Source: an uncultured Bacillales bacterium
Lineage (GTDB): Bacteria; Bacillota_I; Bacilli_A; RFN20; CAG-826
NCBI GenBank assembly: GCA_946414915.1
Contig: CAMKQK010000002.1
Location: 9,377 to 73,376 of the forward strand
Direction of reading: 5' to 3'
DNA: 64,000 nucleotides
Shown here: positions 10,830-55,570 of the stretch, in pieces
How positions within the stretch are numbered: position 1 is the stretch's first letter
How the letters are laid out: each line of letters opens with the position of its first letter
The notes under the pieces: model-generated
What the model was told of the DNA's origin: nothing
The model's database searches: none
Seen by the model: only the letters and a program-made list of their open reading frames with translations
Made by a program: the position numbers and the translations under genes

Positions 10830-10872
10830 CTTTTTGCGATTATACGCGTAATGTGATTAAATAAATGCACAA

Positions 10873-37893: not shown

Positions 37894-38502
37894 ATGAGCC
37901 TATTTTTAACATCAACATCAAGTCCAACAAGTGAAGGTTCCAGTGGTGGTTCCTTGGAATCTTTGAAGAAGTTATTTACTAATCCTGTCCTTTATATAGT
38001 TTTAGGATGTATTGTGCTTTTTATTATTGTTATTTATTTAATTAGAAGATTTGTTAATGCTAGACCAAACGCCACTACAATTGTGGTAAGAAGAGGAAAA
38101 ATATATAAGATATTAGATAAAGATAATCCTAAATGCTTCCTTGTTCCTTTTATGGATAGTGTAGGTGCTATTATCACTGATAGTGAAAAAGAATTCTCCA
38201 GTGATAAATTATTCATAAATAATGGTCCAGATGCTTTATATAAGATTAATTACACTCTTAAATATAAAGTAACTAATCCTAATGAATTCTATAAATATCT
38301 AGATAAAATACAAAATATATTACCTGTTAGACTTAATGATGAATTGCGTCTTTATGCTGATCAAGGTAATGCTTTAGTATTAATCAAAGATTATAGAGAT
38401 AACACTAAGAGCATTATTGAAATTATTAATAAAGCAGTAGCGGAGTATAGCATTGAAGTTACTGATTTTAAGATTAATATTATTGAGCCAATGGGCAAAT
38501 AG
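37894..38502 (+). CDS. Membrane-anchored protein, tentatively SPFH/band-7-like
   Basis: Single TM followed by VVRRGKIYKILDKDNPKCFLVPFMDSV, resembling the start of SPFH domains. Weak call. Confidence 0.4.
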   Translation: MSLFLTSTSSPTSEGSSGGSLESLKKLFTNPVLYIVLGCIVLFIIVIYLIRRFVNARPNATTIVVRRGKIYKILDKDNPKCFLVPFMDSVGAIITDSEKEFSSDKLFINNGPDALYKINYTLKYKVTNPNEFYKYLDKIQNILPVRLNDELRLYADQGNALVLIKDYRDNTKSIIEIINKAVAEYSIEVTDFKINIIEPMGK

Positions 38503-38539: not shown

Positions 38540-39451
38540 ATGTTAATATTTGTTACCGGAGTTGCGGGTCAATTAGGTCACGATGTCATCGACGAACTCC
38601 ACAAAAGAGGGATAGATGCCATTGGTAGTGATATACGTTCTGAAGAAGAAATAATTAACAAAGCAAATTGGAATAGGTATATTCAACTAGATATTACCAA
38701 CGAAGAATCAGTTAATAAGGTTATTGAAGAAATAAAGCCAGACGCTATTATCCATTGCGCCGCTTGGACTAATGTTGATGGCGCAGAAGATTCAAATAAC
38801 AAAGAATTGGTAAAAAAGATTAATATTGCCGGCACCGATAATTTGGTAAAAGCCGCTAAAAAGATTGGCGCCAAATTCATGTATATATCTACAGATTATG
38901 TTTTCGATGGTGAAGGAACTAAACCATGGAAACCAGATGATAAAGATTATTCTCCATTGAATTATTATGGGCAAACAAAATTAGAAGGAGAATTATCTGT
39001 ATCATCTCAATTAGATAAATACTTTATTGTTAGAATAGCGTGGGTATTTGGACTAAATGGTAAGAACTTTATCAAAACAATGTTATCTCTAGCAGATAAA
39101 GGATATAAAGAATTAAGAGTAGTGGATGATCAAATAGGTACACCTACTTACACATATGATTTAGCAAGACTATTAGTGGATATGATTCAAACCGATAAGT
39201 ATGGTTATTATCACGCTACTAATGAGGGTGGATATATTTCTTGGGCAGATTTCGCAGAAGAAATATTTAGACAAGCCAATAAAGATGTGAAAGTAAAAAG
39301 AGTTACAACCGCTGAGTATGGTATTTCCGTTGCAAAGAGACCATTTAATTCAAGATTAGATAAAAGTAAATTAGTAGAAAATGGATTTGAGCCTCTTCCT
39401 GATTGGAAAGATGCTGTTAGAAGATATCTAGAAGAGATAAAGGAGAAATAA
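38540..39451 (+). CDS. rfbD: dTDP-4-dehydrorhamnose reductase
   Basis: [34 protein letters not shown]. Confidence 0.9.
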
Positions 39452-39453
39452 TT

Positions 39454-40341
39454 ATGAAAGGTATTATTTTAGCTGGTGGTAGTGGCACACGTCTCTACCC
39501 ATTAACATTAGTAACATCAAAACAATTATTACCTGTTTATGATAAACCAATGATTTATTATCCATTATCTGTTCTTATGATGGCGGGTATCCGTGATATC
39601 TTAATTATTTCCACTAAAGAAGATACTCCTAGAATGGAACAATTATTAGGAGATGGTTCTAAATTTGGTATTAAATTATCTTATAAAGTTCAACCATCAC
39701 CAGATGGGTTAGCGCAAGCTTTTATTTTGGGTGAAGAATTCATAGGTAAAGATGCCTGCGCTATGGTTTTAGGTGATAACATCTTCTACGGTGCTGGTTT
39801 AGTTAAGCATTTACAAAACTCTGTTAGAAGAGCAGAAGAAGAACACCAAGCTACAATATATGGCTACTATGTACATGATCCAGAAAGATTCGGAATAGTG
39901 GAACTAGATAAAGATGGCAATGCTTTATCAATTGAAGAAAAACCAAAAAATCCAAAATCTAATTATTGTGTTACTGGATTATATTTCTATCCAGCAGGTG
40001 TATCTAAAAAAGCAAATCAAGTTAAACCATCCGCTAGAGGGGAATTAGAAATAACTTCTTTAAATAATATGTACCTAGAAGAAAAGAATCTTCATGTTAC
40101 TACTTTAGGTCGTGGATATTCTTGGTTAGATACAGGAACTCATGAGTCCTTAGTGGATGCTTCTAACTACATTAAACTTCTAGAAGACCACCAAGGCTTA
40201 AAAGTATGCTGTCCAGAAGAAATAGCATATAAGAATGGTTGGATAACAAAAGAGCAATTAATAGAAACTGGCAAATTGATGAAAAAGAACCAATATGGTC
40301 AGCATTTATTAAATGTCGCTAACGGAAAGATTAAATATTAG
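39454..40341 (+). CDS. rfbA: Glucose-1-phosphate thymidylyltransferase
   Basis: [46 protein letters not shown]. Confidence 0.95.
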
Positions 40342-40343
40342 TC

Positions 40344-41300
40344 ATGAATAAAAAATATCAAGTATTTATTAGTTCAACATACAGTGATCTCAAGGAAGAA
40401 AGAGCGGAAGTTACAAAAACTATCCTTGAGCTTGATTGCATTCCATCGGGCATGGAAGCGTTTTGTTCAGAGTCGGAAGAACAATTTGAAATAATCAAAC
40501 GCATCATAGATTTATGTGATTACTACATTTTAATTATTGCTAATAGATATGGTTCGATAAACAAGAAAGAAAACAAAAGTTACACGGAACTAGAGTACGA
40601 ATATGCTTGCCTGAACGGGATACCGGTTCTCGCTTTTATTGCTGATGATAGCGTCAATAAACCATCTGACAATAAGAATGAAAGACTTGAAAATTTCAAA
40701 AAACTTGTCTCTGAAAATAGGATGATATCTTATTGGAAAAATAAAGATGAATTAGCTAGAAAAGTCGCAATCGCATTGTCCAATGCATTTAAAAAGAACG
40801 ACAGAGTTGGATGGATTAAGACGAATGAAAACGAGGAAGAACTTCGCATGCTAGAAGAGATTAAAGGCGAAAATGATTCACTTAGAAAGCAAGCGGAAAA
40901 AAGCGAAGATACTATTGCAAAATTAAAAAAAGAAATTGATGATTTGTCTTTTTCTGATACCACCTTACTGTATGACCAGAAGCCCATTTATATTAAGTAT
41001 AATGTCTATGGTAACACAACAACAAAAACGATTACCATTAAGAGTATTTTCGAAAGCATCTCAATTCATTTCTTAAATATTTCAAAAAGAGAAGACGGCT
41101 TTTTGGAATTGATTGCCAAGGCTATAGACAAAGAATACCATTCAAACATTAACGAAGAGATTCTCAAAAAAATAGCGAATCAACTTCTAGCACTAAACTT
41201 ATTCACAACTCATTGGAGCAAAGAGAACAAAGCTCTTTATTATGAACTTACAAAAAAAGGAATAATAGAAAGAGACAAATTGAATCTTTTTACTGTTTAG
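40344..41300 (+). CDS. DUF4062-domain protein with coiled-coil and unassigned C-terminal domain, inserted between rfbA and rfbC
   Basis: N-terminus YQVFISSTYSDLKEERAEV...CDYYILIIANRYGS matches the DUF4062 signature. Coiled coil EELRMLEEIKGENDSLRKQAEKSEDTIAKLKKEIDDL. The ATG is 2 nt after the rfbA stop. Confidence 0.7.
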   Translation: MNKKYQVFISSTYSDLKEERAEVTKTILELDCIPSGMEAFCSESEEQFEIIKRIIDLCDYYILIIANRYGSINKKENKSYTELEYEYACLNGIPVLAFIADDSVNKPSDNKNERLENFKKLVSENRMISYWKNKDELARKVAIALSNAFKKNDRVGWIKTNENEEELRMLEEIKGENDSLRKQAEKSEDTIAKLKKEIDDLSFSDTTLLYDQKPIYIKYNVYGNTTTKTITIKSIFESISIHFLNISKREDGFLELIAKAIDKEYHSNINEEILKKIANQLLALNLFTTHWSKENKALYYELTKKGIIERDKLNLFTV

Positions 41301-41345
41301 AACCATTCTCCCAGTTGTCAGTAGTTTAGAAAGGAAAAGTTATAA

Positions 41346-41900
41346 ATGAAACAAATAGGTAATTTCTCATTCAAAGAAACATCTATTAAAGGTGTATACA
41401 AGATAGATGTTAAGAAATACGGTGATAACCGTGGTTATTTTATGGAAACTTATAAAAAGACTGACTTTGATGAAGCTGGTCTAGTTTATAACTTTGTACA
41501 AGATAACCAATCTAAATCCAAAAAAGGCGTATTAAGAGGATTACATTTTCAAAAGAAATATCCTCAAGCTAAATTAGTAAGATGCATTGAAGGTGAAGTC
41601 TTTGATGTATGTGTAGATTTAAGACCAGGATCACTAACATATGGTAAATGGGAAGGTGTAGTATTATCCGCTGAAAAAGGCAATCAATTTATGATTCCTA
41701 GAGGATTTGCACATGGTTTCTTAGTCTTAAGCGAAACCGCGACATTCTGCTACAAAGTGGATGAATTCTATCATCCTGAAGATGAAGGCGGCTTAATGTA
41801 TGATGATCCAGACATTGGTGTTGATTGGCCAGATGTTGGAGAAATATTGTTATCCGAGAAAGACAAGAAGAACCTTTGTTTAATGGAATTGTCAAAATAA
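41346..41900 (+). CDS. rfbC: dTDP-4-dehydrorhamnose 3,5-epimerase
   Basis: DNRGYFMETY, RGLHFQ, PRGFAHGF, full length 184 aa. Confidence 0.95.
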   Translation: MKQIGNFSFKETSIKGVYKIDVKKYGDNRGYFMETYKKTDFDEAGLVYNFVQDNQSKSKKGVLRGLHFQKKYPQAKLVRCIEGEVFDVCVDLRPGSLTYGKWEGVVLSAEKGNQFMIPRGFAHGFLVLSETATFCYKVDEFYHPEDEGGLMYDDPDIGVDWPDVGEILLSEKDKKNLCLMELSK

Positions 41901-41919
41901 TAAACGGAGTCGAGACCAA

Positions 41920-42744
41920 ATGAACTATTATCATATAAAAATAAAAATCGCCGTCGATAAAGGCAAATCGTTTTACAGGTATGATAAGATGTATGACGAA
42001 GTTTTAGAAATGGTTAGTCGTTATAAAAGTGGAGAAGCTTTTTATTTGGATGGTTATTCGCTTAACAAGAGCAACATCATCCAATTCAAAATTTCTGTTA
42101 CGGAGAAGAAGAAGGATGATGTCTTGTCCGAAATAAGAGCATCATGGGCTTCTTCTGGGATTGCGCTTATTCTGTCTGATAGTTCGGTTGTTGAAAACAA
42201 TAATTATTCTAAAGATGTTACAGGTGACTTTCTCAATCCCCCGACTAAACAGTTAAAGGGAAATAATAAAAGCATCAGCTCTGTTGATGCGTCAAGAAAT
42301 GTATTCGTTGTCCATGGCCATAACACCAATATGATTGAAAAAGTTGAACTGTTATTAACTAAACTCGGATACAATCCAATTGTTCTTTTTAAAGAAGCCG
42401 ATAAAGGGAAAACAATTATCGAAAAAATTGAAGATAACTCTGATAAAGTATGTTTTGCAATCGTGCTATATTCTAAATGCGACATCGGATATCCTGTTGG
42501 TAAAGAAGGCGACAAGAAATATAGGGCGAGGCAAAACGTTGTGTTTGAGCACGGATATATGATGGCTAAACTCGGAAGAGATAAAGTGTGTGCGCTATTA
42601 GAAGACAGCAGTATTGAGCGTCCTGGTGACATAGATGGAATCATTTATGTTATATTTGGTGACAACGATGAATGGAAATTAAGAATTGCGAAAAATATGA
42701 AGGCAGTTGGGCTAAGCATTGATTACAATTCTTTGTATGATTAA
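41920..42744 (+). CDS. TIR-like nucleotide-binding domain protein (Cap12 / Pycsar-TIR effector-like C-terminal domain) with unassigned N-terminal domain, inserted between rfbC and rfbB
   Basis: C-terminal half VFVVHGHN...FAIVLYSKCD...RARQNVVFEHGYMMAKLGRDKVCALL...PGDIDGIIY matches the bacterial TIR-like family seen in CBASS/Pycsar effectors. Confidence 0.75.
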   Translation: MNYYHIKIKIAVDKGKSFYRYDKMYDEVLEMVSRYKSGEAFYLDGYSLNKSNIIQFKISVTEKKKDDVLSEIRASWASSGIALILSDSSVVENNNYSKDVTGDFLNPPTKQLKGNNKSISSVDASRNVFVVHGHNTNMIEKVELLLTKLGYNPIVLFKEADKGKTIIEKIEDNSDKVCFAIVLYSKCDIGYPVGKEGDKKYRARQNVVFEHGYMMAKLGRDKVCALLEDSSIERPGDIDGIIYVIFGDNDEWKLRIAKNMKAVGLSIDYNSLYD

Positions 42745-42774
42745 TCCATTAAAAGTATATAAGTGGAGTGATTT

Positions 42775-43803
42775 ATGAAAACAATCTTAGTTACAGGTGG
42801 AGCAGGTTTTATTGGTAACTGCTTCTGCAAATTATTATTAAAAGAAAGATCAGAATGGAAAGTGGTGAATGTTGATTCGTTAACATATGCTGCTAATCCA
42901 AACACTATCAAAGAAGAATTAAATAATAAGAACTATAAGTTCTATAAAGTAGATATTAGAAATAGAGAAGAAATTAATAAGATATTCGAAGTAGAAAAAC
43001 CAAATATCGTTGTTAACTTTGCAGCAGAATCTCATGTTGATAGATCTATCCTAGATCCAGAATCATTCTTAACTACTAATATTATTGGTACAGAAGTATT
43101 AATGGATGCTTGTAGAAAATATGGTATTGAAAGATATCATCAAGTATCTACTGATGAAGTATATGGTGATCTTCCATTAGATAGACCAGATTTATTCTTC
43201 CATGAAGATACCCCATTACATACATCAAGTCCATATAGCACATCTAAAGCTAGTGCTGACCTATTAGTTCTAGCGTACTTCCGTACGTATGGTCTACCAG
43301 TCACTATCTCTAGATGTTCTAATAACTATGGCCCATATCAATTCCCAGAAAAACTAATACCACTAATGATATATAAAGCTAACCATGACCAAAAACTTCC
43401 AGTTTATGGTGAAGGTATTAATGTTAGAGACTGGTTATATGTAGAAGACCACTGTAGAGGTATCCTAGCGGTCCTAGAAAAAGGCAGAGTAGGGGAAGTA
43501 TATAACTTAGGTGGACATAACGAAAGAAATAACTTATATATTGTTAAACGTATATTATCTGAACTTAATAAACCAGAATCATTAATTGAACATGTTGCTG
43601 ATAGACATGGTCATGACCAAAGATACGCTATTGATCCCGCTAAAGCTAATAAAGAATTAGGTTGGGATCCAATCACTACATTTGAAGTAGGCATTAAGAA
43701 AACTATTGAATGGTATTTGTCTGATGTTGGTTCATCTTGGCTAGATGAATGCATGAAACAAAACCAAGAGTGGTTAGAAAAGAACTATAAGAATAGGAAA
43801 TAA
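42775..43803 (+). CDS. rfbB: dTDP-glucose 4,6-dehydratase
   Basis: VTGGAGFIG, STDEVYG, YSTSKASAD, HGHDQRYAID. Confidence 0.95.
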   Translation: MKTILVTGGAGFIGNCFCKLLLKERSEWKVVNVDSLTYAANPNTIKEELNNKNYKFYKVDIRNREEINKIFEVEKPNIVVNFAAESHVDRSILDPESFLTTNIIGTEVLMDACRKYGIERYHQVSTDEVYGDLPLDRPDLFFHEDTPLHTSSPYSTSKASADLLVLAYFRTYGLPVTISRCSNNYGPYQFPEKLIPLMIYKANHDQKLPVYGEGINVRDWLYVEDHCRGILAVLEKGRVGEVYNLGGHNERNNLYIVKRILSELNKPESLIEHVADRHGHDQRYAIDPAKANKELGWDPITTFEVGIKKTIEWYLSDVGSSWLDECMKQNQEWLEKNYKNRK

Positions 43804-43825: not shown

Positions 43826-44062
43826 GTGGCTCGCATTGCTATAGGATGCGCAACACCCGCCGAAAAGAAAGCTGAAGATTTTAAAGTTATTATCTATGAA
43901 CCAACATTAGAAGATGGTTCTGAATTCTTTGGCAGTAAAGTAGTTAATAACTTAGAAGAGTTTAAGAAATTATCTAACGCAATTATCGCTAACAGATATG
44001 ATAGTTGTTTAGATGATGTTCAAAACAAAGTATATACAAGAGACCTATTTAGAAGAGATTAG
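43826..44062 (+). pseudogene. ugd: 3' fragment of a UDP-glucose 6-dehydrogenase gene
   Basis: Only the last about 65 residues of a Ugd-type protein are present (VIIYEPTL...IIANRYD...[10 protein letters not shown]). There is no N-terminal Rossmann or catalytic part. Confidence 0.6.
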
Positions 44063-44079
44063 CCTTTAGACAATTGACT

Positions 44080-44715
44080 ATGTATGATTTTATAAATAAT
44101 AAAGAGCTAAGAAACAATCTCAGGGATTATTGTGAATGTGCTATTTTGGCGGTACAGAAGCAAATCTCTGATTATTTTACATTCTCCTTTAAACTCATTG
44201 GCAGCGGTGATACCCGCTTAATGATGATTAATGGTAAAGATAATTCTATTGATCTAGATTATAACTTAGTGATTCAAAGAGATAAGAAACAATTAATTGG
44301 GGATCCAGGCAGAATAAAACATCTTTTCATGAAAGAGCTAAAAGACTATTTTGGTAAAGATGTGAAAGTCTCTGACTCCACACAAGTGATTACTTGTAAT
44401 ATTGGAAAAATATATGGATATAAATTCTCATTTGATATTGCTATTATCATTGATTGTAATGATGGGTATATGTATAAGATAGTCAACGATAAGAATACGG
44501 CACCCACTAGATATATTTGGAACAAAATACCAAAATCAAAAGACTATGAATATAAGTTCACTGCCTTAAAAAGAATGGGGTATTGGGAAGATATCAAAGA
44601 ATTATATAAAACAAAAAAGAATAATTATTTAAAAAGACAGAGCGATATCACTTCATTTTCTATTCTAATTGAAACGGTTAATGAGATTATTCAAAAGAAT
44701 CACATAGAATTATGA
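44080..44715 (+). CDS. Minimal Pol-beta-fold nucleotidyltransferase (211 aa)
   Basis: G41-S-G-D44, then D58-L-D60, and a later FSFDIAII acidic strand: the hG[GS]...DxD...D pattern of minimal NTases. ATGA overlap with the downstream gene. Confidence 0.55.
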   Translation: MYDFINNKELRNNLRDYCECAILAVQKQISDYFTFSFKLIGSGDTRLMMINGKDNSIDLDYNLVIQRDKKQLIGDPGRIKHLFMKELKDYFGKDVKVSDSTQVITCNIGKIYGYKFSFDIAIIIDCNDGYMYKIVNDKNTAPTRYIWNKIPKSKDYEYKFTALKRMGYWEDIKELYKTKKNNYLKRQSDITSFSILIETVNEIIQKNHIEL

Positions 44716-45392
44716 ACAATCTCGATACATTCTTTTCTCTAATTGAAATCAAAGAGGAAGAAAAAGACTCCGCGAAAGAGTTTATCAAGCTAAGAGGCCT
44801 AGAAGAACACATACTAATGGCTAAACATTTAGCTTCTTACATGAGCGAAGGGAAACCGGCTTATAGCGAAGTGGCCACAGCCTTCCGCTATGACAAAAGA
44901 ATTAGAAGAATAGTTTATAAATATATAGGGTTAATTGAAGAGTATTATCGCTCTTTTTTATGCAATAACTTTTCTAAGCCAAATGAATTAGGTATTAAGA
45001 CAAACAAATCTCTATATGATTATTGTTGTGATTCCTTATTTAGCAAAATAGTGGAGATAGTTTGGTCATTAGATGATAACTATAAATCTCAACTATTTGA
45101 ATCCAAAGTAGTTCTTAAAAAGAATCTAGATGCATTAGTCAGGTTTAGAAATGCTATTAGTCATAATAGAACATTAATCAATTATCGTGATTTTAAAGAA
45201 GTAACTTTAGACAACGGTGAAATAGGTTGTTCCTTGTTGTTAAATACGAAAAACCTTTTAAGCTTATTACCTTGTTCAATTAAAGATTCATTTATAAAAG
45301 AAATCAACTCTTCAATTCGTATTGGGGCAAAAAAGTTGGCCAATCAAACTGAGTGGAAACTATTTTCTTTCTTAATTATTAAATTGAGTTAG
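44712..45392 (+). CDS. Abi_2 (AbiD/AbiF-like, HEPN-superfamily) protein
   Basis: RFRNAISHNR (R146-x4-H151) in a helical protein of 226 aa. Translationally coupled to the NTase. Confidence 0.6.
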   Translation: MNNLDTFFSLIEIKEEEKDSAKEFIKLRGLEEHILMAKHLASYMSEGKPAYSEVATAFRYDKRIRRIVYKYIGLIEEYYRSFLCNNFSKPNELGIKTNKSLYDYCCDSLFSKIVEIVWSLDDNYKSQLFESKVVLKKNLDALVRFRNAISHNRTLINYRDFKEVTLDNGEIGCSLLLNTKNLLSLLPCSIKDSFIKEINSSIRIGAKKLANQTEWKLFSFLIIKLS

Positions 45393-46213: not shown

Positions 46214-49093
46214 ATGAAATCGGTAGAAGAGTATAAAACCTACATTAGCAATTTGAATTATACATCAGACCAACAAAAAGCTATCTTTGCAGATAATAAG
46301 AATGTTCAAATAATAGCTTGTGCGGGGTCAGGAAAGACTTCTACAATTGTGGCAAGAATTATTTTTCTCATTGTTTCTGGAGTTAAACCATCTGAAATCG
46401 TTGCGATTACCTATACCGAAAAGGCCGCTGCATCTTTGAAGCAAAGAATATATCAAGAGTATGAAAAGGCAACAGGGACGCTTGAAGGTTTGGGAGATTT
46501 GTTTATAGGAACGATTCACGGATATTGTCTTTTCCTTCTGCAAGAATACACGAACGATTTTAAAAACTATGACATATTGAACGATATTCAAACGAAACTA
46601 TTCATTAAGGCTAAAAGATGGAGCAACGGCTTAAACGAATGCAAATATTACTCAAATAACGACCCTAATCCAAAAACATTGGTTGGCAACTTCGGATCAA
46701 ATTGGGAGAGATTTAGCGAAAGAGTAGCAGCGTATAAGCAGTTTCTAGATATTGCTCGTGAATATGGTGTGGAAAAAATTGGCAACCAAGATCTTTCTGA
46801 ATTAGTAAAGAAATATTCTGATTCATTAAAAAATAACAAATATTTTGATTTTACATCTATCCAAATTACAGCTTTAGATTATTTCAAAAATGGATTGTTT
46901 GATGATTACCTCTCGGGAATCAAACATTTGATTGTTGATGAATATCAGGATGTTAACGAGACTCAAGAAGAAATCATAAGATACTTTTATACCCATGGAG
47001 TTAATATCTGCGTTGTCGGTGATGATGATCAGACCATCTACGAATGGCGTGGTAGCCGCTTAAGATATATAAAAGACTTTGTAAATAGATATGAAAACGT
47101 TGAGTTTGTTGAACTATCGAAAAACTTTAGAAGTAGTGTAGGCATTACTGTAACCTCAGAAGTATTAATTTCAAACAATCATAACCGCATACCAAAAACA
47201 ATGGAAAGCGCTAATAATCAAGATTATAGAAAGGGTGATATTCTTGGGATTAGATTTGAATCAAGAGACGATGAGAATCAGTTTATAGTCGATAAAATAA
47301 AACAATTAATCGGATCAAAATTTGAACAAAAATCAAAAAACAAAGAATGGTCTTTAAGCTATGACGATATAGTAATACTTGTTAGTTCTGTTAAAAGAAT
47401 CGATTCTTTGATAAAAAAGCTAAACGATTCCAACATTCCGTTTGTTGTTGAAGGCACACAAAATCTTTTTGAAACTCCTGAAATCAACGCGATACTAGAA
47501 ACATTTAAGTATATGATTTTTAATCACATAGCATCACTTAAGCTCAACCCAATTGATGCGGTGATGTCAATCAAAAAGATGAATACAACAGCGCCTCAAA
47601 ATGTAATTGACAAATGGAAGGCTGTTTTATCTACTGATGAACAATCGATCAATAATGCCCTCATTGAATTTAGAGATATGTTTTTAGATGCTGTTGCTGA
47701 TCAAAACAAATCTTATGAGTATACAATTCAAGAGAATCTCCATAAATTGTTATTTGGCTTAGGTGCTATGTCCACAAAACTAAACGATAAAGTTTATTAC
47801 AACATAGGTAAGTTCACCGAAATGATTAATGATTATGAAAAGATTTACCTAAAAACATTCCCTTTAGAGAGAATTGAAAAATTTAATGAATTTTTAATCC
47901 AAGATGCTAAGAATTTATATCCTGAAGGCTGGCTATCACCAAGATTTAGTCTTGTTAAGGCTTTGAGGGTAATGACCTATCACCAAGCAAAGGGGCTTGA
48001 ATTCCCTGTTGTTTTCTTACCATACCTCACAAAAGATTCGATTTTTCCTTTAACTAAAGGTGGCGGTGGAATTAGTGCTTGGTCTATCATTCATAACGAA
48101 AGAATAAAAGAAGAATTCAATGATTCCGAGTCACGCCATAGAGTTTTTTATGTTGGAATGACTCGCTCAGAAAAATATCTTTTTATGACTAGATCTCCGG
48201 GTGTTTCTTCTACTGGGTTAACACACTACAATACGGAAGCTATCCAATTTACTCAAGCTTTAAATTCGGAATATATCGTTCATGATAAATGTTTAGATAT
48301 TGAGTACGATAAATCATCATGCGAAAAGCATTCAGCAGATGAGATTATCACTTTGAATTTTAGTCTATTGAAAGATTTATTTGAATGCGGATATAAATTC
48401 AAACTCTCCAATATTTTTGGTTTCAAAGCCCCGCTTGATATTAGAATGGGATATGGCCAGTCAATACATAGCATGCTAGATTATATTCACAAGAATTGGC
48501 GCTCAATCAATCTTGATGATGAAAACGAAATCCTCGATATTGTTAATAGATTTTTGCACCTGCCATATGCTTCGAAAAAATTAATCGATGCAGAAAGAAC
48601 AAAGGCTTTCATAAAAATCAAAGCATATATCGTTAATAATAAATACAGGTTTAATAATATTTTGTTCTCAGAAAAAAGAATCGATTATAAGTTTTCTGAT
48701 TATTTCTTTATTGATGGTAGAATTGATTTAATAAGAGATGATGTTAACAAAGAATTAACGATTGTTGATTTTAAGTCTGATAAGAAGGCGCTAAGCCAAG
48801 AACAAATTAAGAATCAGCTTATGCTTTATGTTCTTGGTTATGAATCTATGAAAAAAGAAAAGATTTCTTATATAGAGTCATATGATATTAATGAAACAAA
48901 ACCAACTCGTATCCGTATCACAGATAGTGATCGGGATTCGTTCAAAAAACGATTAACTGAATCTGAGACTACTATTAAAAGTGGGAAGTATCTTAGACAT
49001 TGTGATGTTGATCCAGATTATAAGAACAAGTATTGTAATAAGAATTGTTTTTTGTGGAATGATAAGCTAAAGGCTTGTAACGGTAAATTATAA
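46214..49093 (+). CDS. UvrD/Rep-type SF1 helicase fused to a C-terminal PD-(D/E)XK (RecB/Cas4-like) nuclease with a Cys cluster
   Basis: Helicase motifs: ACAGSGKTS, LIVDEYQDVN, VVGDDDQTIYEWRGS, NFRS, YHQAKGLEFPVVF, FYVGMTRSEKYL. Nuclease: IDGRIDLI...IVDFKSDKK...QLMLY. The Cys at ECGYKF plus C-terminal C...CxxxC...C suggests an Fe-S cluster. Confidence 0.85.
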   Translation: MKSVEEYKTYISNLNYTSDQQKAIFADNKNVQIIACAGSGKTSTIVARIIFLIVSGVKPSEIVAITYTEKAAASLKQRIYQEYEKATGTLEGLGDLFIGTIHGYCLFLLQEYTNDFKNYDILNDIQTKLFIKAKRWSNGLNECKYYSNNDPNPKTLVGNFGSNWERFSERVAAYKQFLDIAREYGVEKIGNQDLSELVKKYSDSLKNNKYFDFTSIQITALDYFKNGLFDDYLSGIKHLIVDEYQDVNETQEEIIRYFYTHGVNICVVGDDDQTIYEWRGSRLRYIKDFVNRYENVEFVELSKNFRSSVGITVTSEVLISNNHNRIPKTMESANNQDYRKGDILGIRFESRDDENQFIVDKIKQLIGSKFEQKSKNKEWSLSYDDIVILVSSVKRIDSLIKKLNDSNIPFVVEGTQNLFETPEINAILETFKYMIFNHIASLKLNPIDAVMSIKKMNTTAPQNVIDKWKAVLSTDEQSINNALIEFRDMFLDAVADQNKSYEYTIQENLHKLLFGLGAMSTKLNDKVYYNIGKFTEMINDYEKIYLKTFPLERIEKFNEFLIQDAKNLYPEGWLSPRFSLVKALRVMTYHQAKGLEFPVVFLPYLTKDSIFPLTKGGGGISAWSIIHNERIKEEFNDSESRHRVFYVGMTRSEKYLFMTRSPGVSSTGLTHYNTEAIQFTQALNSEYIVHDKCLDIEYDKSSCEKHSADEIITLNFSLLKDLFECGYKFKLSNIFGFKAPLDIRMGYGQSIHSMLDYIHKNWRSINLDDENEILDIVNRFLHLPYASKKLIDAERTKAFIKIKAYIVNNKYRFNNILFSEKRIDYKFSDYFFIDGRIDLIRDDVNKELTIVDFKSDKKALSQEQIKNQLMLYVLGYESMKKEKISYIESYDINETKPTRIRITDSDRDSFKKRLTESETTIKSGKYLRHCDVDPDYKNKYCNKNCFLWNDKLKACNGKL

Positions 49094-49110
49094 AAATAAA
49101 CGGAGCTGCA

Positions 49111-50334
49111 ATGACATTAGATATATCTTACGAAAAATATAAAAAAAGTGGTGATATTCACGGGACAGTTCTATACCCAGCAGTTATGGTGGCACCTGTT
49201 CAAAAAGAAGTTTTGAAGTGGCTGATTGGTGGCCGCAAGAATATTAAAGTTTTTGATCCATTTCATGGCTCAGGTACAGCGCTTTATGAAGCTGCAGACA
49301 TCGATCAATCTATATCTGTCTTAGGTTATGATATCAACCCCTTAGCATCTTTGATAACATTTGTTAAACTTCAAGGAATTGATGAAGAATCTTTTAATAG
49401 AGACTTTCACGAACTCAAAAAAAACCTGCTTGCCGATGTTGATTGCCCATCGTTATCGTTTTATAAGTCAGAGAAGTGGTTTAAACCAGATATTCTTAAA
49501 ACTCTATCCAAAATTTCTTTTTCAATTAAAAAAATTGAAAATGATAGGAATCGGAGGTTTTTCTGGGTTATGCTTTGCGACATTGTTAGGAAATATAGTA
49601 ATACCAGAAGTTCTACTTACAAATTACATATAAAAGAAAAAACGAAAATAGATTCATTGAAAAATGATGTCATAAATGATTTTGTTTCAAAAATAAATTC
49701 TTCGTTTGGTTACTACAATAAACATTTTAAGAATATCGAATTGATTAAAGGAAATTCCTTAGAATTAATAAAGGCATTAGATAATAACTCCATAGATATT
49801 ATTATTACGTCTCCACCTTATGGGGATAATGCTACGACAGTTACTTATGGACAGTTTTCTTACTTACAACTTTCTTTTATCGACAAGAATGATTTATCAT
49901 TGGATGGCTGGGAACTTAACAACTGCCAGGCGATTGATTCATCGAGTATGGGCGGTTCTTCCTCAAAATTTGCACTTGATGAATTAGGAGGAAAGTTGAT
50001 AACGCCTTATTTGAAAAAAATACCACGAAACAAACATAAAAAAATAATTAGATTTTTTTCTGATTATTTTGCTTTTCTAGATGAAGCCTCTCGTATTTCA
50101 AATCAGTATATTGTAATGACGTTGGGAAACAGAACAGTAAATCGTATTAAAATTAATCTTACTGGTCTAACTGAAAAATATCTTCAATCAAAGGGTTTTT
50201 TAAAAAAGAAAAAGTTATCCCGCAAAATATCTTCCAAAAGAACGCCTTCTTCAATAATTGTAAATAATAAAAAGACAGACACAATGAACAAAGAATACGT
50301 TTTGATAATGGAAAAACAAGTTGCTCAATCATAG
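49111..50334 (+). CDS. DNA amino-methyltransferase (N6-adenine or N4-cytosine)
   Basis: AdoMet motif I F48-DPFHGSGT. Catalytic S234-P-P-Y (nt 49810-49821). About 180 aa between the motifs could be a target-recognition region. Confidence 0.8.
   Translation: MTLDISYEKYKKSGDIHGTVLYPAVMVAPVQKEVLKWLIGGRKNIKVFDPFHGSGTALYEAADIDQSISVLGYDINPLASLITFVKLQGIDEESFNRDFHELKKNLLADVDCPSLSFYKSEKWFKPDILKTLSKISFSIKKIENDRNRRFFWVMLCDIVRKYSNTRSSTYKLHIKEKTKIDSLKNDVINDFVSKINSSFGYYNKHFKNIELIKGNSLELIKALDNNSIDIIITSPPYGDNATTVTYGQFSYLQLSFIDKNDLSLDGWELNNCQAIDSSSMGGSSSKFALDELGGKLITPYLKKIPRNKHKKIIRFFSDYFAFLDEASRISNQYIVMTLGNRTVNRIKINLTGLTEKYLQSKGFLKKKKLSRKISSKRTPSSIIVNNKKTDTMNKEYVLIMEKQVAQS
50308..50323 (+). repeat. 16-nt direct repeat copy A (ATGGAAAAACAAGTTG) at the 3' end of the methyltransferase gene
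   Basis: Identical to 50400-50415, which is the start of the rfbC remnant. Confidence 0.9.
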
Positions 50335-50399
50335 TGTTTGCCTTATCCGGCAAAGAATTTGGACGAGAAGCAAATGTAATGCTTTAGAAATTATTAATT

Positions 50400-50625
50400 A
50401 TGGAAAAACAAGTTGGTATTTTTTATTTAAAGAATCATCTATTAAAGGTGTTTATAAGATAGATGTTAAAAAATACGGTGATAACCGTGGTTATTTTATG
50501 AAAACTTATAAAAAGACTGACTTTGATGAAGCTGGTCTAGTTTATAACTTTGTGCAAGATAACCGATCTAAATCTAAAAAAGGTGTTTTGAGAGGATTTG
50601 CACACGGCTTTTTAGTATTAAGTGA
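50400..50625 (+). pseudogene. rfbC: Second, internally deleted copy of rfbC (dTDP-4-dehydrorhamnose 3,5-epimerase remnant)
   Basis: MEKQVGIFYLKESSIKGVYKIDVKKYGDNRGYFMKTYKKTDFDEAGLVYNFVQDNRSKSKKGVLRG joins directly to FAHGFLVLSE. It is near-identical at nucleotide level to 41380-41547 plus 41704-41733 of the intact gene. About 150 nt of the middle and the whole 3' end are missing. Confidence 0.85.
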
Positions 50626-51056
50626 ACTCACTGATTTAGGAAATTCCTTTAGGATTAGACATCACGAAACAAGCAAAATTGATTTTACATCAGACAATCA
50701 CCGCGAATACTTTTTTAACAGGTGCCTTGCCTTGATTGTTTTGGCGATAAAATATATAAAACTGTGGTTTTTCTTGACTCAAAAAATAAGGTGGCATCTT
50801 TAGCAATAAGGTGCTACCTTTTGTATATAAAGAAAATAGATCTCGCTATAAGAAGATTACCTTGTATAAGAAACCAATCTTATCTTAGGATAAAGAAGGA
50901 AAAAGACCTTATAAAGAGTCTATTATTAAGTTAATGTTTAAGCATATTATTTAAGTTTACTTACAAACTTTTTTCCTTAAAGTTTTCAATTATTGGTGGT
51001 TGTCTATTTTTCGATGACCACCTTATTTTTGAAAGGACCAAGAATTCTTTATACGA

Positions 51057-51139: not shown

Positions 51140-53395
51140 ATGATTTTGATTAGCGATAAACCAACAGATAAAAAAGAAAATGCTGAAAAAGCATTGCAAG
51201 ATACTTGTAATGCAATAATAACCTCCATATTGAAATACGATAAAGACGATCCAATTACTATACATATTAATGGTCCTTGGGGTTCTGGTAAAAGTTCTTG
51301 TTTAAATATAATAAAGCGTGAGTTTGATACTAATAGAACTAAATTTTGTGATGAAAGTGGCCGATTATATTTGACAACTTGTTTTAATCCTTGGAACGTA
51401 CTGGATAAGTCTAAACTCACTAACGATTTTTTTAAAGCGTTATCTGACACATTTCATAGAACCAAAGTCAAAAAAATACTTGAAAAAAGTTTGAAGATAT
51501 CTTCTACAATAGCATCTCTGCTCGGGAAAGAGAACCTGGCGTCCCAATTTAGTGCATTAAGCAATTATTTTCGTGCACTTAACCAAAGCGAATCAAAGAA
51601 CTCTTTAAGTGAGTCTAAAACAAAAATATGTGAGAAACTTGAAACATCTCCATTTAAGAGGATTGTTTTCATTGATGAAATTGATAGACTGCAATCAGAA
51701 GAAATAGCAGTAGTATTCCAGCTTATTAATAATGTTTGTGATTTGCCAAATGTTATTTTTGTTATTGCTTTTGACCAAGAAATCGTCTCAACTTCTTTGG
51801 CAGAGTATTTAGCAAAAATTAAATTTGAAAAGACAATTACCGGTAGTTTTACAACAGACAAAAAAGACAGTTTTATAAATTCTTCTGCGAAAATAACGGA
51901 CGCATCATTTTTTCCTGCAGAATCAAAGGTCAATCTAATTGAAACTCAAAAATCAGATATTGGCGATTTGTACTTGCAAAAAATAATACAATATAGATTT
52001 GACATTCCAATTTTGGGCGGAAGCGAAAGAATCTCAATTCTGACTAAAGTATTGTTTGAATCAAACTCGTTTAGCAATGAAGAGGCGGCAACTATTTTTG
52101 ATGAGATTAAATCTTTACCTTTATATGGCATTTCTTCATTTAACCATCCTAGACAAATAAAGCGATTTTGCTCATATTTGATTGATGCTTTAAAACAATA
52201 TGGAGAATATGTTGATTCTGGTGACATCCTTATGGTTGAGACTCTAAGAGCATTTTATCCCTCGTCATACACCAAGTTTGTTAGGTATCTTGAAAGAGTT
52301 GCAAAAGGCGATAGCTTATACCAGGTATCAATTGATATTCAAAAGAGTTTTTCTTGGCTTAGTCAGCATGATCCTAATAGAATTGTGAACTATTTGGTTA
52401 ACGAAAATGAAAAATCTTTGTTAAAACCATATGTTAGACTTTTTTCGAAGGAGAATGCTAAACTATACCTTTCAAACGATAATGGATTAATTGCAATTAG
52501 TTATGTTAAGAAAATAGTTTATAGTCCAATAGAATCAAGATGGCTAGATTCCATTCCTAATGAGCATATACGTTATGCTTTGGCACAATTGTATAGGTGC
52601 ATAAAAGAAGCGCCAGTTGAGTTTTCTTCAAGAGATTGGTTGCATTGGTATATTGATAATGCTTTCTCGTTGAGAATTAATGGCGACAAAACGCTATACA
52701 GTCCAACTATTTTTGGCGAACTTCTAGGATGTTTGTTGTCTTTCTTGAATGAAGAGAACGCCAAAAACGTGCTTAATACTATCATTAGCCTCTGCAAGAC
52801 ACAAAAGGTCGATGAAGAATTAGCATCTTTCTTAGAGGGAATTTTGTGGAATATCGATTATGATAAAAGACAATTCGTTAATAAAACATTAGCAGATAAC
52901 TTTGCGAATAATGTAATTGAGACAATCGTTTTTTATTCAAAATCATTAAAAGAAAGTCCTTTTGGTTTCAATAATATGCTTAATGTTTTGAATCAATTTG
53001 ACAAACTATCTGATTTGTTTGGCATTTTGGATTCTTTTAGCGAAGATGAAAAAGTCAATTTTATGTGTAATAGTTATGGGCTATTTTCTTCAAAAAGAGA
53101 TGAATTAAGTTTTACCCCTCCAATTATGGGAGTACTAGGATTTAGAGATAACGCAGCTGATGAATTAAACTCAATTAGAGAAACATCTTTTTATAAGACA
53201 AAAATTTCTCAAGTACTGTCAATGAATCAAGTTAATTTGTCTACTCTTTACTGTTATTTATGGCCAAATCTATATTCTTTCCAAAATAATGGATTTAGTG
53301 GCGAAAGCGTAGAAGCAAAAATCAGCGAGCTTGTTAACAAAAAGAAGCTTGCTGTAAACGACGATATTCAGGGTGCATATTTATCTTCTAAATAG
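51140..53395 (+). CDS. KAP-family P-loop NTPase
   Basis: Walker A INGPWGSGKSS, Walker B-like VFIDEIDRL about 150 aa later, large helical C-terminal region, 751 aa. Confidence 0.8.
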   Translation: MILISDKPTDKKENAEKALQDTCNAIITSILKYDKDDPITIHINGPWGSGKSSCLNIIKREFDTNRTKFCDESGRLYLTTCFNPWNVLDKSKLTNDFFKALSDTFHRTKVKKILEKSLKISSTIASLLGKENLASQFSALSNYFRALNQSESKNSLSESKTKICEKLETSPFKRIVFIDEIDRLQSEEIAVVFQLINNVCDLPNVIFVIAFDQEIVSTSLAEYLAKIKFEKTITGSFTTDKKDSFINSSAKITDASFFPAESKVNLIETQKSDIGDLYLQKIIQYRFDIPILGGSERISILTKVLFESNSFSNEEAATIFDEIKSLPLYGISSFNHPRQIKRFCSYLIDALKQYGEYVDSGDILMVETLRAFYPSSYTKFVRYLERVAKGDSLYQVSIDIQKSFSWLSQHDPNRIVNYLVNENEKSLLKPYVRLFSKENAKLYLSNDNGLIAISYVKKIVYSPIESRWLDSIPNEHIRYALAQLYRCIKEAPVEFSSRDWLHWYIDNAFSLRINGDKTLYSPTIFGELLGCLLSFLNEENAKNVLNTIISLCKTQKVDEELASFLEGILWNIDYDKRQFVNKTLADNFANNVIETIVFYSKSLKESPFGFNNMLNVLNQFDKLSDLFGILDSFSEDEKVNFMCNSYGLFSSKRDELSFTPPIMGVLGFRDNAADELNSIRETSFYKTKISQVLSMNQVNLSTLYCYLWPNLYSFQNNGFSGESVEAKISELVNKKKLAVNDDIQGAYLSSK

Positions 53396-53666
53396 TTTTA
53401 AGACAATTACTTGTAATAAAAGCATGTACCCACAATCTTTTAATCTAATTTCTTTCTTAACTAATTAAAAAGATGAAATGGTGTGTATAATGCTTGCCGA
53501 GATGGTACAAATCTACACGGAATACATTGCCTCAAATTGCTTTTTATCATTCTGTCACTAAGCATATCAAGCATAACGAGAGCGCATCAAATAATCGCAA
53601 TAATTAGAAGCAAATTGCAGCCATGTGATTTGTTTTTTTAAAGAACAAGAAAACTTTATATATCGG

Positions 53667-53696
53667 TTGACATAAAAACAAGAAAACATTTAGAAT
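53667..53696 (+). promoter_or_regulatory. Sigma-A-type promoter for the ATPase/TOPRIM pair
   Basis: TTGACA (53667-53672), 18 nt, TAGAAT (53691-53696). About 40 nt upstream of the AAGGAG RBS. Confidence 0.6.
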
Positions 53697-53735
53697 ATAT
53701 TTGTTCAAAAACTTTGAACTAATAAGGAGATTATT

Positions 53736-54842
53736 ATGGCAGTCTTAAAAGTGGAGTTTGATAATTTTCTTTGCTTTGATGACTTTTCAGCGGATTTTTC
53801 ATATCCAAAGAAAGTTGTAAAAACAAACCTTCCAAACGAGTTTTTATCTGATTATCCAAATATTAGATTTAAGAAAGTTAATATTATCGTTGGTTCTAAT
53901 GCTTCTGGAAAAACATCATTGGGCCGCGCAATCTGGCATACCTTTATGTTCTTAAGTAAAAAAGAAGGTAATGCATTAACCGAACTAATCAAAAATCCAA
54001 ATAAGAGAACTAGCATTTTACTGGATTGTATTTATCCAAATGGTGTTTTCTTTCGCGTTGAAATTAGAATTGAAGCTAGCACAAAAGATATTTTTGTAAG
54101 ATTAAGAGTAATGCGGGCACAAAAGAATGATTCCTATGAGTCTTTGGTAGATAGATTAGATGCTAATGCTCAATTTGAAAACTATATTACTGCCTTAGAT
54201 AAATTTGAATTTCATGGTTGGAATTTCTCCTTTCCTTCAATCGAAAGCGGCTTTGATATCATCAAGTGTGAACACGACGAAAAGGATAAAAAGGAATTCT
54301 GCCAAATCTATGAAAGTGTTTTAAAAACAATGGATCCATCCATTAAGCGAGCGTATCCATCAAGAGAAGTAGAAAACTCATATATTGTCGATTTTTATGA
54401 TGGCCAATCAGTGGCGGTTACAAATGGTGAAAAACTAAGTGAAATTAAAAAATTATCATCTGGTACGAAATACGCAATTAATATCGCAGATGTTATATTT
54501 TCTATTAAAAAACACTATAATGGTTTCTATTTTGTTGACGAACAATTCTCATATGTTAATTCAGACATTGAAATTGCGTGCTTAATGAAAATGATTTCAT
54601 TATTAGATGATGGTGAACAGTTATTCTTTACTTCACACAACGAAGAATTGCTAGCATTGCCATTACCAAATCACACATTTAATTTTATTAGTAAAGTATG
54701 GGATGGCGACAATACTCATATCGTGTGGACAAACGCATCCATTGAAAAACGCAACAATGTTAATATCAAAAACTTATATGATAACGACTTTTTCAATGTG
54801 AGTCCTGACGTAAACAAGATTCTAGATATTGCGGAGAACTAA
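53736..54842 (+). CDS. ABC/AAA_21-type ATPase (OLD-family-like ATPase subunit)
   Basis: Walker A GSNASGKTS, Walker B FYFVDEQF, H-loop region LFFTSHNEELL. Confidence 0.8.
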   Translation: MAVLKVEFDNFLCFDDFSADFSYPKKVVKTNLPNEFLSDYPNIRFKKVNIIVGSNASGKTSLGRAIWHTFMFLSKKEGNALTELIKNPNKRTSILLDCIYPNGVFFRVEIRIEASTKDIFVRLRVMRAQKNDSYESLVDRLDANAQFENYITALDKFEFHGWNFSFPSIESGFDIIKCEHDEKDKKEFCQIYESVLKTMDPSIKRAYPSREVENSYIVDFYDGQSVAVTNGEKLSEIKKLSSGTKYAINIADVIFSIKKHYNGFYFVDEQFSYVNSDIEIACLMKMISLLDDGEQLFFTSHNEELLALPLPNHTFNFISKVWDGDNTHIVWTNASIEKRNNVNIKNLYDNDFFNVSPDVNKILDIAEN

Positions 54843-54844
54843 AA

Positions 54845-55387
54845 ATGGATAGAAGAGTTTTTCAATACTACGTAGAGGGCGAATGTGAGAAGAATTTCTT
54901 AAACTCTTTTATGCACGCCAAAAATAGCGAATATATCATTCATCCAGGCAGAATTGAAAAACTAAATCCCATAACTTCTAGAATAAGCGATACTAAAGCC
55001 AGAACGATTAAAAGAGATACTACAATTGTATTTGTTTTTGATACAGACATCGAAAGTACATCAATTCTTGAGGAGAATATAAAAACGTTAAATAGAATAG
55101 CGTATATCGATGCTAAGGATATTATCTTCCTTATGTCTGTGAAAAGATTTGAAGAGGAGATAGTGTATTCCTGCAAGAAGGTAAGTGATGTTAAGGGATT
55201 AGTAAAGTTGTTTAATTCTCAAGGGTTGACAGCTTTTAAAACAGACTTCTTAACTTGCAAGAACCTAGAAGACAAATTAAGGCAAGTTGGTTTTGATATT
55301 TCAGTTATGTGGACAAGGCTTGCAAGGGAACCATTTGATAAGTATCCAAATGGCGGCAAATATGTCAAAATAAAGAACCCTAAATAA
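54845..55387 (+). CDS. RloB/DUF4276-like TOPRIM-type protein (putative nuclease partner)
   Basis: N-terminal YYVEGECEKNF (conserved Glu) and VFVFDTDIE (DxD): the TOPRIM pattern. Starts 2 nt after the ATPase stop. Confidence 0.55.
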   Translation: MDRRVFQYYVEGECEKNFLNSFMHAKNSEYIIHPGRIEKLNPITSRISDTKARTIKRDTTIVFVFDTDIESTSILEENIKTLNRIAYIDAKDIIFLMSVKRFEEEIVYSCKKVSDVKGLVKLFNSQGLTAFKTDFLTCKNLEDKLRQVGFDISVMWTRLAREPFDKYPNGGKYVKIKNPK

Positions 55388-55570
55388 TTTTAATAGATTT
55401 AAAGTCAAGAATAAGCTGCGCACAAAAAGTGTGGCTTTTTCTTCATTAATACATATATTCCTCTATCATTTCCCTAAATCCATGCTATGATTAGGCTATA
55501 ACCATCATATACGTATAATAAGAATCAAATATTAGATATTGGTTCGAGGGAGTTGTTTTAAATACACATT

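Follow-up and report, generated by a model that had tools for sequence, protein, structure and literature searches.

Why should two genes of the kind that serves antiphage defense lie one by one between the genes of a sugar-nucleotide pathway? The question is raised by a 64-kb stretch of DNA from an uncultured Bacillales bacterium (GTDB lineage RFN20; CAG-826; assembly GCA_946414915.1, contig CAMKQK010000002.1, positions 9,377 to 73,376), referred to here, at its full length, as the window. Its rml genes for deoxythymidine diphosphate (dTDP)-rhamnose synthesis are interrupted twice, by a gene for a DUF4062 protein between rmlA and rmlC and by a gene for a TIR-like protein between rmlC and rmlB. 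From the comparisons below, it is quite likely that the two encode independent, single-gene abortive-infection nicotinamide adenine dinucleotide hydrolases (NADases), carried as promoter-less cassettes in the rml operon of a capsule locus that lies beside a defense island.

An intact rml block with two inserted genes

The open reading frame (ORF) list placed six genes in a row on the plus strand: rmlD, which opens the rml block (38540-39451; dTDP-4-dehydrorhamnose reductase), rmlA (39454-40341; glucose-1-phosphate thymidylyltransferase), the DUF4062 gene (40344-41300; 318 amino acids, aa), rmlC (41346-41900; dTDP-4-dehydrorhamnose 3,5-epimerase), the TIR-like gene (41920-42744; 274 aa), and rmlB (42775-43803; dTDP-glucose 4,6-dehydratase). 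The gaps on either side of the inserts measured 2 nucleotides (nt) at rmlA/DUF4062, 45 nt at DUF4062/rmlC, 19 nt at rmlC/TIR, and 30 nt at TIR/rmlB. All four Rml enzymes were intact, with full-length Pfam matches (RmlD to RmlD_sub_bind, E 1.4e-89; RmlA to NTP_transferase, E 1e-73; RmlC to dTDP_sugar_isom, E 1.7e-70; RmlB to GDP_Man_Dehyd/Epimerase, E 6.9e-83), and were 81-95% identical to their orthologues on a related contig, L094 (RmlD 81%, RmlA 94%, RmlC 91%, and RmlB 95%; RmlB was also 93.5% identical to that of a second relative, L001). The cluster of RmlB proteins at 90% identity or more had 100 members. The inserted genes matched Pfam DUF4062 (PF13271; E 4.6e-29, residues 6-88) and CAP12-PCTIR_TIR (PF10137; E 1.6e-34, residues 127-246). 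An earlier note, made from the letters alone, had given this gene order and these gaps exactly; its naming of both inserts as defense-type genes with a DUF4062 and a Cap12-like TIR domain likewise agreed with Pfam and PADLOC. Recent horizontal arrival, as judged by composition, was rejected for want of a GC anomaly, as GC content across the inserts was flat at 0.30-0.36. Homologues of the inserted genes occur on plasmids and in viral contigs.

The DUF4062 protein

DUF4062 has recently been placed in antiphage defense. A bioRxiv preprint of May 2026 presents the Klebsiella Swarozyc protein KpSwz as a stand-alone defense protein. Its DUF4062 domain acts as a TIR-like NADase, in which E97 (residue 82 of the crystallized 16-C chain) is catalytic, and its AUX region, a hairpin with a winged-helix core, binds the phage portal, leading to NAD+ hydrolysis and abortive infection (10.64898/2026.05.01.722283). 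Two other preprints of 2026 deal with DUF4062, one with Evangelion (10.64898/2026.06.25.731849) and one with NIR, Avs2-NIR, Vulcan, and Vesta (10.64898/2026.09.04.749371).

Searches with the window protein returned more than 1,500 family matches, mostly of 315-340 aa; in the species-representative genome collection the nearest was 44% identical, with no close relative there. In an alignment of 23 members the N-terminal domain was strongly conserved, with invariant F8, E38, R68-Y69-G70, and T81-E82; a coiled-coil came next, and the C-terminal domain was more variable. A profile built from 23 homologues matched KpSwz (PDB 10wc/11cq/11cv) over positions 2-320 versus 3-322 (E 6e-71), and pairwise identity to KpSwz was 36% over residues 2-189. 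The putative catalytic Glu, E82 in the window protein (SYTE), aligned with E82 of the KpSwz chain (SFTE), which is E97 in the paper. The AlphaFold2 model (mean predicted local distance difference test score, pLDDT, 85.7) was laid out as a TIR-like NADase-type domain (about residues 1-151), a helical stalk (163-202), a hairpin (215-230), and a winged-helix-like domain (232-314), with residues 215-318 (hairpin plus winged helix) forming the AUX candidate sensor region. Foldseek matched the model to TIR and nucleoside 2-deoxyribosyltransferase domains and to MarR-type winged helices; its library ran to April 2026, predating the KpSwz entry, and KpSwz was matched by PDB sequence search.

Sequence and model together identify the protein as a diverged member of the Swarozyc family, a single-gene defense type. 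It resembles KpSwz in length class (318 versus 326 aa), in the combination of a DUF4062 TIR-like domain, a stalk, and a hairpin and winged-helix AUX, and in a single-gene, defense-island lifestyle. It is unlike KpSwz in that identity reaches only 36% in the N-terminal 190 residues and the AUX is diverged, such that the trigger may differ; in its low-GC Gram-positive-type host as opposed to Klebsiella; and in its position inside a biosynthetic operon, where KpSwz is a free-standing island gene. With Eva01 (S. aureus pMW2), Avs2-NIR, Vulcan, and Vesta it shares the DUF4062/NIR NADase core, the aromatic motif residue F8, and the catalytic Glu, and by analogy with these systems its logic may also be abortive infection by NAD+ depletion. 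It lacks the HEAT repeats of Vulcan, the alkaline-phosphatase partner of Vesta, and the STAND NTPase of Avs. Membership in Evangelion type 01 was considered and fails, since the short C-terminal AUX of Eva01 is not shared: in tblastn searches of PLSDB, about 200 Staphylococcus plasmid copies matched query residues 4-160 only, at ~41% identity, and no PLSDB record spanned at least 80% of the query.

The TIR-like protein

The second insert matched the PADLOC profile PDC-S35 (PDLC05007; PADLOC-DB v2) over its full length (E 1.4e-74; residues 5-272 versus profile positions 4-277/278), and four more PDC-S35 profiles matched it with E-values from 6e-62 to 1e-39. Its family comprised more than 2,500 matches, in which the C-terminal domain carried an invariant RARQNVVFEHG that includes E210, and the N-terminal 105 residues were far more variable. 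Plasmids of Bacillus, Komagataeibacter, and Acinetobacter carried full-length relatives, as did viral contigs. The AlphaFold2 model (pLDDT 86.6) showed two domains: an N-terminal domain (residues 1-105), presumed to be the sensor, and, beyond a disordered linker (109-123), a C-terminal TIR domain of the Cap12/PycTIR type (124-274). Foldseek matched the C-terminal domain to TIR-STING (7un8; E 1e-5) and to SPARTA TIR-APAZ, and a profile search of the PDB matched the protein to Cap12 (E 3e-6). The N-terminal domain (nt 41920-42234) is a small alpha/beta domain in the model, with a pLDDT of about 90; neither Pfam nor the fold search of the PDB matched it to anything.

The full-length profile match and the two-domain layout place this protein in the PDC-S35 family, a single-gene candidate defense type; the window copy differs in being embedded between rmlC and rmlB. 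With the effectors of the cyclic-oligonucleotide-based antiphage signaling system (CBASS; Cap12 in TIR-STING and TIR-SAVED) and with PycTIR of the pyrimidine cyclase system for antiphage resistance (Pycsar), it shares the PF10137 TIR subfamily and the Glu motif, and its model matched the SfSTING TIR structures 7un8 and 9lmq. Unlike them, it has no STING, SAVED, or cyclic-nucleotide-binding domain by Pfam and fold search, and neither a CD-NTase nor a pyrimidine cyclase was found among the operon neighbors by Pfam and PADLOC. In the absence of a cyclase partner or a cyclic-nucleotide sensor, sensing is probably direct, via the N-terminal domain, and not through a second messenger. A split CBASS or Pycsar, made up of this TIR effector and a 213-aa nucleotidyltransferase encoded 1.3 kb downstream, was rejected, as that nucleotidyltransferase always pairs with Abi_2; it was also absent beside the TIR-like genes of L009, L012, and L101-L180.

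Two separate and long-maintained insertions

The close relatives available for comparison were metagenome contigs, many of them short. Two of them, diverged from the window and from independent samples, carried the insertions at the same junctions: L099 held the end of rmlA, the DUF4062 gene, and the start of rmlC at 83.7% nt identity to the window, and L100 the end of rmlC, the TIR-like gene, and the start of rmlB at 81.4%. The arrangement is therefore more than chance. A third relative, L094, had the order rmlD-rmlA-rmlC-TIR-rmlB; the DUF4062 gene was missing and the rmlA|rmlC junction was intact, at 2 nt. In the window, the ATG of the DUF4062 gene takes the place of the rmlC ATG of L094, 2 nt after the rmlA stop, and the 45-nt spacer behind the gene (41301-41345) contains a ribosome-binding site (RBS), AAAGGA (41331-41336), which arrived with the DUF4062 gene and now serves rmlC. 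The other junction was empty in L181, a relative whose RmlA falls in the same 90% cluster as that of the window: there rmlB starts 13 nt after the rmlC stop, with GGAGAT in between. In L094 the TIR-like ORF begins right after the same GGAGAT, and a new GAGGAGG precedes rmlB; in the window an RBS-like GGAG (42765-42768) lies in the 30-nt spacer 3' of the TIR-like gene, upstream of rmlB. An RBS-like purine run was thus seen before each gene downstream of an insert. With rmlA|rmlC intact in L094 and rmlC|rmlB intact in L181, the inserts represent two separate insertions and not one, which bears out the earlier view that a single random insertion could hardly explain the alternation.

Both insertions are old and maintained under purifying selection: ratios of nonsynonymous to synonymous substitution rates (dN/dS) were 0.08 for the DUF4062 gene against L099 and 0.06 for the TIR-like gene against L100, with dS of about 1.1-1.3. 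The cargo of the second slot was less constant than its surroundings. The TIR-like alleles of the window and L094 were only 48% identical, with dS saturated and dN at 0.45, between rmlC and rmlB flanks that had dS of 0.54-0.64 and were 91-95% identical in amino acids; the cargo was therefore either replaced or diverged much more than the flanks. Divergence between these same-slot alleles was highest in the N-terminal domain (dN 0.58, versus 0.37 in the TIR domain), as would be expected of a phage-sensing surface.

Relatives also differed in what else the rml block held. In L181 the order was rmlA, rmlD, acyltransferase_3, rmlC, rmlB (8795-10000), with a gene for a Metallophos-nSTAND3 protein (PADLOC PDC-S60) a few hundred bases 3' of rmlB; in L001, a close relative, a DUF4062 gene lay outside the rml genes. 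The rml block in this clade takes in non-rml genes and always adjoins defense genes.

Two probable cassettes rather than one system

If the two inserts formed one system, they should be found together elsewhere. Co-occurrence was scored within four genes on either side, at 80 DUF4062-AUX loci from species-representative genomes and at about 75 TIR-like loci from metagenomes. A TIR-like neighbor was present at 1 of the 80 DUF4062 loci, and a DUF4062 gene at none of the ~75 TIR-like loci. The single case, and the only other co-occurrence found, was L075 (9174-11002), an uncultured Clostridia metagenome-assembled genome in which a PDC-S35 gene (251 aa) lies directly upstream of a Swarozyc-like gene. 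The earlier note had proposed such a survey of related neighborhoods: the same insertions were indeed present (L099, L100, and, for the TIR-like gene, L094), and co-occurrence of the two genes elsewhere was confined to L075. The TIR-like gene was found alone in L094, L009, and L012, and the DUF4062 gene alone in L005, L001, L093, and L097. The two families even alternated in one position. In another lineage, the slot between ugd and an epimerase gene was taken by the DUF4062 family in L005 and by the TIR-like family in L009; the two contigs were homologous at the DNA level as far as the ugd stop codon and again from the epimerase start.

An obligate two-gene system was rejected on these grounds, namely the rarity of co-occurrence and the alternate occupancy of one slot, and the inserted genes behave as two independent, mutually interchangeable single-gene cassettes. 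Of the suggestion that a two-component abortive-infection system had hitchhiked on the operon, the hitchhiking of defense genes stands; the two-component part does not, given the survey counts, the L005 and L009 slot, and a KpSwz that acts alone. As a separate observation on the DUF4062 family, L013 (8283-10266) carried two tandem DUF4062-AUX paralogues between genes for an SNF2 helicase and a DNA methylase.

Family-wide and local neighbors

Across the surveyed loci, the usual company of the DUF4062 genes was restriction-modification and other defense genes: immediate neighbors encoded HsdS (10/75), HsdR, YhcG, DNA methylases, and helicases. By Pfam, at 75 loci, HsdS was the commonest upstream neighbor, with HsdR and YhcG among the commonest downstream; a DUF4062 gene stood directly downstream of hsdS at 10 of 75 loci, and was followed by hsdR at 5 of 76 and by a YhcG gene at 5 of 76. 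No rml, ugd, epimerase, wecB, or DegT gene lay within four genes of any of the 80 DUF4062 loci, and sugar genes were near the TIR-like gene at about 4 of 75 loci (L124, with Ugd-TIR; L118 and L111, the former with wecB...TIR...rmlA-rmlC; and L154). Family-wide, then, neither family is linked to sugar nucleotides. Among close relatives of the window the association with sugar genes was striking: the rmlC|rmlB slot was filled in the window, L100, and L094, the ugd|epimerase slot in L005 and L009, a glycosyltransferase gene flanked the TIR-like gene in L012, and other defense-type genes (AAA_15/RloB, NYN, AAA_21, NB-ARC) interleaved with sugar genes in L005, L009, and L012.

A lone defense gene between the genes of a host operon recalls the PrrC/RloC-style arrangement, in which a defense gene is lodged within a type I restriction-modification operon. 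The likeness lies in a single defense gene placed between host-operon genes and presumably co-transcribed with them. The difference is that the host operon of the window is a sugar-nucleotide pathway, not a defense operon, and that a functional link to the insert is not evident. At five Lachnospiraceae and Clostridia loci (L020, L035, L036, L038, and L048; ~8600-12040), gene sizes are consistent with the order hsdM, hsdS, the DUF4062 gene, a 348-aa gene, and hsdR. If that order is true, a Swarozyc-like gene would lie inside a type I restriction-modification operon, with the same embedded habit as in the window.

Transcription and a possible mode of action

Neither promoter-like nor terminator-like sites were found in the four junctions by a simple consensus scan, in line with what had been reported before; over the scan, promoter-like sites were fewer (61) than in shuffled sequence (70). 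Nearly all ORFs of at least 120 aa in the window lie on the plus strand, and the shared orientation of the rml genes and the inserts therefore says little by itself. Tight junctions, RBS-like runs, and the lack of a terminator match make it plausible that the inserted genes are co-transcribed with the rml genes; the earlier statement that they should be is thus tenable as an inference. A further non-sugar gene of the same putative operon was noted between wecB and rmlD (37894-38502): it encodes a 202-aa membrane protein of the SPFH/Band 7 type (Pfam E 3.8e-7) and had no PADLOC match.

If the inserts are promoter-less NADase cassettes, read-through of the capsule/rml transcript would yield a constitutive, low supply of each protein in autoinhibited form. 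In an infected cell, the sensor domain of each would bind a phage component, by analogy with the portal in the case of the homologue KpSwz, and the activated proteins would deplete NAD+, causing abortive infection. A cassette would comprise an ORF and, behind it, a spacer whose RBS-like purine run serves the gene that follows; the whole would be inserted seamlessly at a gene junction, and cassettes would be exchanged by homologous recombination, with conserved sugar-nucleotide genes as flanking anchors.

Weighing the explanations

Several observations count against this account. No integrase marks the inserts, nor do direct or inverted repeats: a search for repeats in their surroundings yielded the rmlC remnant alone. 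Weak promoter matches (9/12) were present inside the upstream ORFs, at 41113-41141 and 42659-42686; promoters internal to those ORFs are possible, and the case for co-transcription rests on spacing and the absence of consensus signals. The AUX of the DUF4062 protein reached KpSwz at the profile level only, pairwise BLAST ending at residue 189, and with an AUX this diverged the trigger may not be the portal. PDC-S35 is a computational candidate only: the literature search found no experimental paper on it or on its architecture, and none of the papers citing PF10137 tests it. Embedding in sugar-nucleotide operons, moreover, recurred in several lineages (rml, ugd|epimerase, L118, and L124), such that the mere nearness of a defense hotspot is not a full explanation.

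That last point bears on whether the position matters in itself. Defense cassettes might be selectively kept inside capsule sugar-nucleotide operons, with the proteins still ordinary phage-triggered NADases; possible reasons include constitutive expression, the difficulty of deleting a cassette without capsule loss, and a tie between immunity and capsule type, a phage receptor, by which the two would change hands together in capsule switching. We consider this unlikely as an explanation of the locus, though a good deal speaks for it: the same junctions filled in diverged relatives under purifying selection, strongly diverged TIR-like alleles between well-conserved rmlC and rmlB flanks, a ugd|epimerase slot that accepts either family, the Ugd-TIR and wecB...TIR...rmlA-rmlC arrangements elsewhere, the interleaving of other defense genes with sugar genes in L005, L009, and L012, and inserts that keep translation signals for the downstream rml genes. 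Against it, such embedding was rare in the broad surveys (none of the 80 DUF4062 loci and about 4 of 75 TIR-like loci); the strong cases all trace to a small number of related sample sets, and the bacteria concerned are probably related as well, so that shared ancestry and a nearby island could suffice; and the DUF4062 gene of L001 lay outside the rml genes. Selection on the position itself is thus a weaker possibility, with which the lineage-restricted recurrence is compatible without proving it. Far less probable is that the proteins guard dTDP-rhamnose or capsule synthesis against phage interference, or process nucleotide sugars, as the earlier note had also considered. Repeated placement between sugar-nucleotide genes would suit either role, as would the nucleotide-binding capacity of the TIR/nucleoside 2-deoxyribosyltransferase fold and an N-terminal domain in the TIR-like protein with no recognized fold or ligand. 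Most members of both families, however, lie in restriction-modification or defense contexts without sugar genes, which speaks against a guard, as does the portal trigger of KpSwz, sensed through its AUX; both proteins belong to defense families and keep the catalytic Glu and motifs of the NADase type, which speaks against enzymes of sugar metabolism; and among close relatives the rml pathway does without both genes in L181 and without the DUF4062 gene in L094. Least probable of all, and by a hair, is one cooperative two-component system in which, for example, one protein senses and both execute, or one regulates the other. A single putative transcription unit, two predicted NADases, and the adjacent pair in L075, an unrelated genome, can be cited for it; the survey counts, the several relatives in which each gene was found alone, a KpSwz that works alone, and the cataloging of PDC-S35 as a single-gene candidate tell against it. 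Two independent abortive-infection cassettes therefore remain our preferred explanation.

The border of capsule locus and defense island

Capsule locus and defense island adjoin at the rml genes. The capsule locus, upstream, is of the Wzy type and runs from about 19.2 to 43.8 kb; the rml genes are its last genes and rmlB its final intact sugar gene. It encodes a Wzz-like protein, a CpsD-like kinase, CpsB, CapD, PIG-L, a pyruvyl transferase, a Wzx flippase, and WecB, and, upstream of the rml genes, a protein with a DUF1972-type glycosyltransferase domain, a domain that occurs in rhamnosyltransferases such as WchF. Directly downstream of rmlB, on the plus strand as are the features at 44074-45392, 46214-50334, 50418-50626, and 51140-55387 below, a 78-aa ORF (43826-44062) matched Ugd of L005 by phmmer (E < 1e-5) and represents a C-terminal remnant of ugd; the ORF list held no complete ugd at this site, and ugd was intact beside defense cassettes in L005 and L009.

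The defense island extends from about 44 to 57.7 kb and is followed by genes for an AsnC regulator (57830) and an aminotransferase. It starts with a module (44074-45392) of the 213-aa Pol-beta-type nucleotidyltransferase, with a GSG...DLD motif in its translation, and Abi_2 (Pfam E 8.6e-8). The overlapping pair was also present in L094 (9877-11183), L093 (4392-5719), and L001 (12955-14128); the window and L094 versions were only about 30% identical, and the L094 orthologue of the nucleotidyltransferase had a weak PADLOC match to "Cyclase" (E 6e-9). With Abi_2 taken as a HEPN protein, the pair resembles an abortive-infection or toxin-antitoxin module of the nucleotidyltransferase/HEPN type. Next (46214-50334) come a 959-aa UvrD helicase/PD-(D/E)XK nuclease (Pfam UvrD-helicase E 1.1e-52 and PDDEXK_1 E 6.4e-13; PADLOC GajB E 9.8e-58, with a match to the RTasHel profile as well) and, 17 nt on, a type II methyltransferase-like gene (PADLOC MTase_II E 1.8e-60). 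No GajA partner for the GajB-like protein was found at the locus, and this helicase-nuclease and methylase pair may be an unclassified system. Farther on (51140-55387) are genes for a PifA-like KAP NTPase (751 aa; Pfam KAP_NTPase E 1.7e-34, PADLOC PifA E 9.9e-39), an AbiLi-like ATPase (368 aa; Pfam AAA_21, PADLOC AbiLi E 5.6e-21), and a 180-aa partner of the latter that had no match; a 714-aa protein encoded within 51140-57715 had no Pfam or PADLOC match.

Within the island, about 9 kb downstream of the intact rmlC, lies a degraded second rmlC (50418-50626, in ORF 50321-50803), detected as a direct repeat. It preserves the N-terminal third and a short piece: 181 nt are 92% identical to 41362-41542, and another 36 nt, beyond an internal deletion of ~157 nt, match at 86%; the Pfam dTDP_sugar_isom match covers profile positions 2-55 only. 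The ugd and rmlC remnants point to recombination scars, that of ugd left by recombination or insertion, and hence to repeated past recombination at the border of capsule and defense genes.

Implications

What is new here is a matter of genomic organization, not of mechanism, and in that sense it is moderately interesting. The earlier remark that no such system had been described does not hold for the proteins, as DUF4062 defense is treated in three preprints of 2026 and PDC-S35 is listed in PADLOC; the proteins add little that is new, being a diverged Swarozyc and a PDC-S35 candidate. It holds for the arrangement, of which no description was found: literature searches on defense genes in capsule loci and on rhamnose together with TIR returned nothing relevant to it, and both the conserved embedding and the swapping of cassettes in sugar-nucleotide operons appear to be undescribed in the literature searched. 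Of interest are defense genes that form seamless, promoter-less inserts in a housekeeping operon, are conserved through divergence, and have alleles and even families swapped between the same flanks. Defense-gene finders that use island context or operon purity would overlook or misread such genes, and capsule typing would count them as noise. PDC-S35 is as yet a candidate system, for which the locus is also a natural test bed.

A bolder reading, which we put forward tentatively and regard as doubtful, if less so than selection on position as such, is that the distal sugar operons of capsule loci (rmlDACB, ugd-epimerase) serve this group of low-GC gut- or rumen-type bacteria as conserved sites at which single immune genes without promoters of their own can dock, each with a spacer that brings a replacement RBS for the gene behind it. 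Cassettes would be swapped, even between defense families, when the conserved sugar genes recombine by homology; a strain would pass on or trade capsule type and immunity together, and the position would protect cassettes against deletion. If true, this would amount to a distinct form of defense-gene organization and mobility that needs neither an integrase nor a mobile element. If general, it would link capsule type, which sets which phages adsorb, to intracellular abortive infection, and would thereby shape the spread of resistance during capsule switching.

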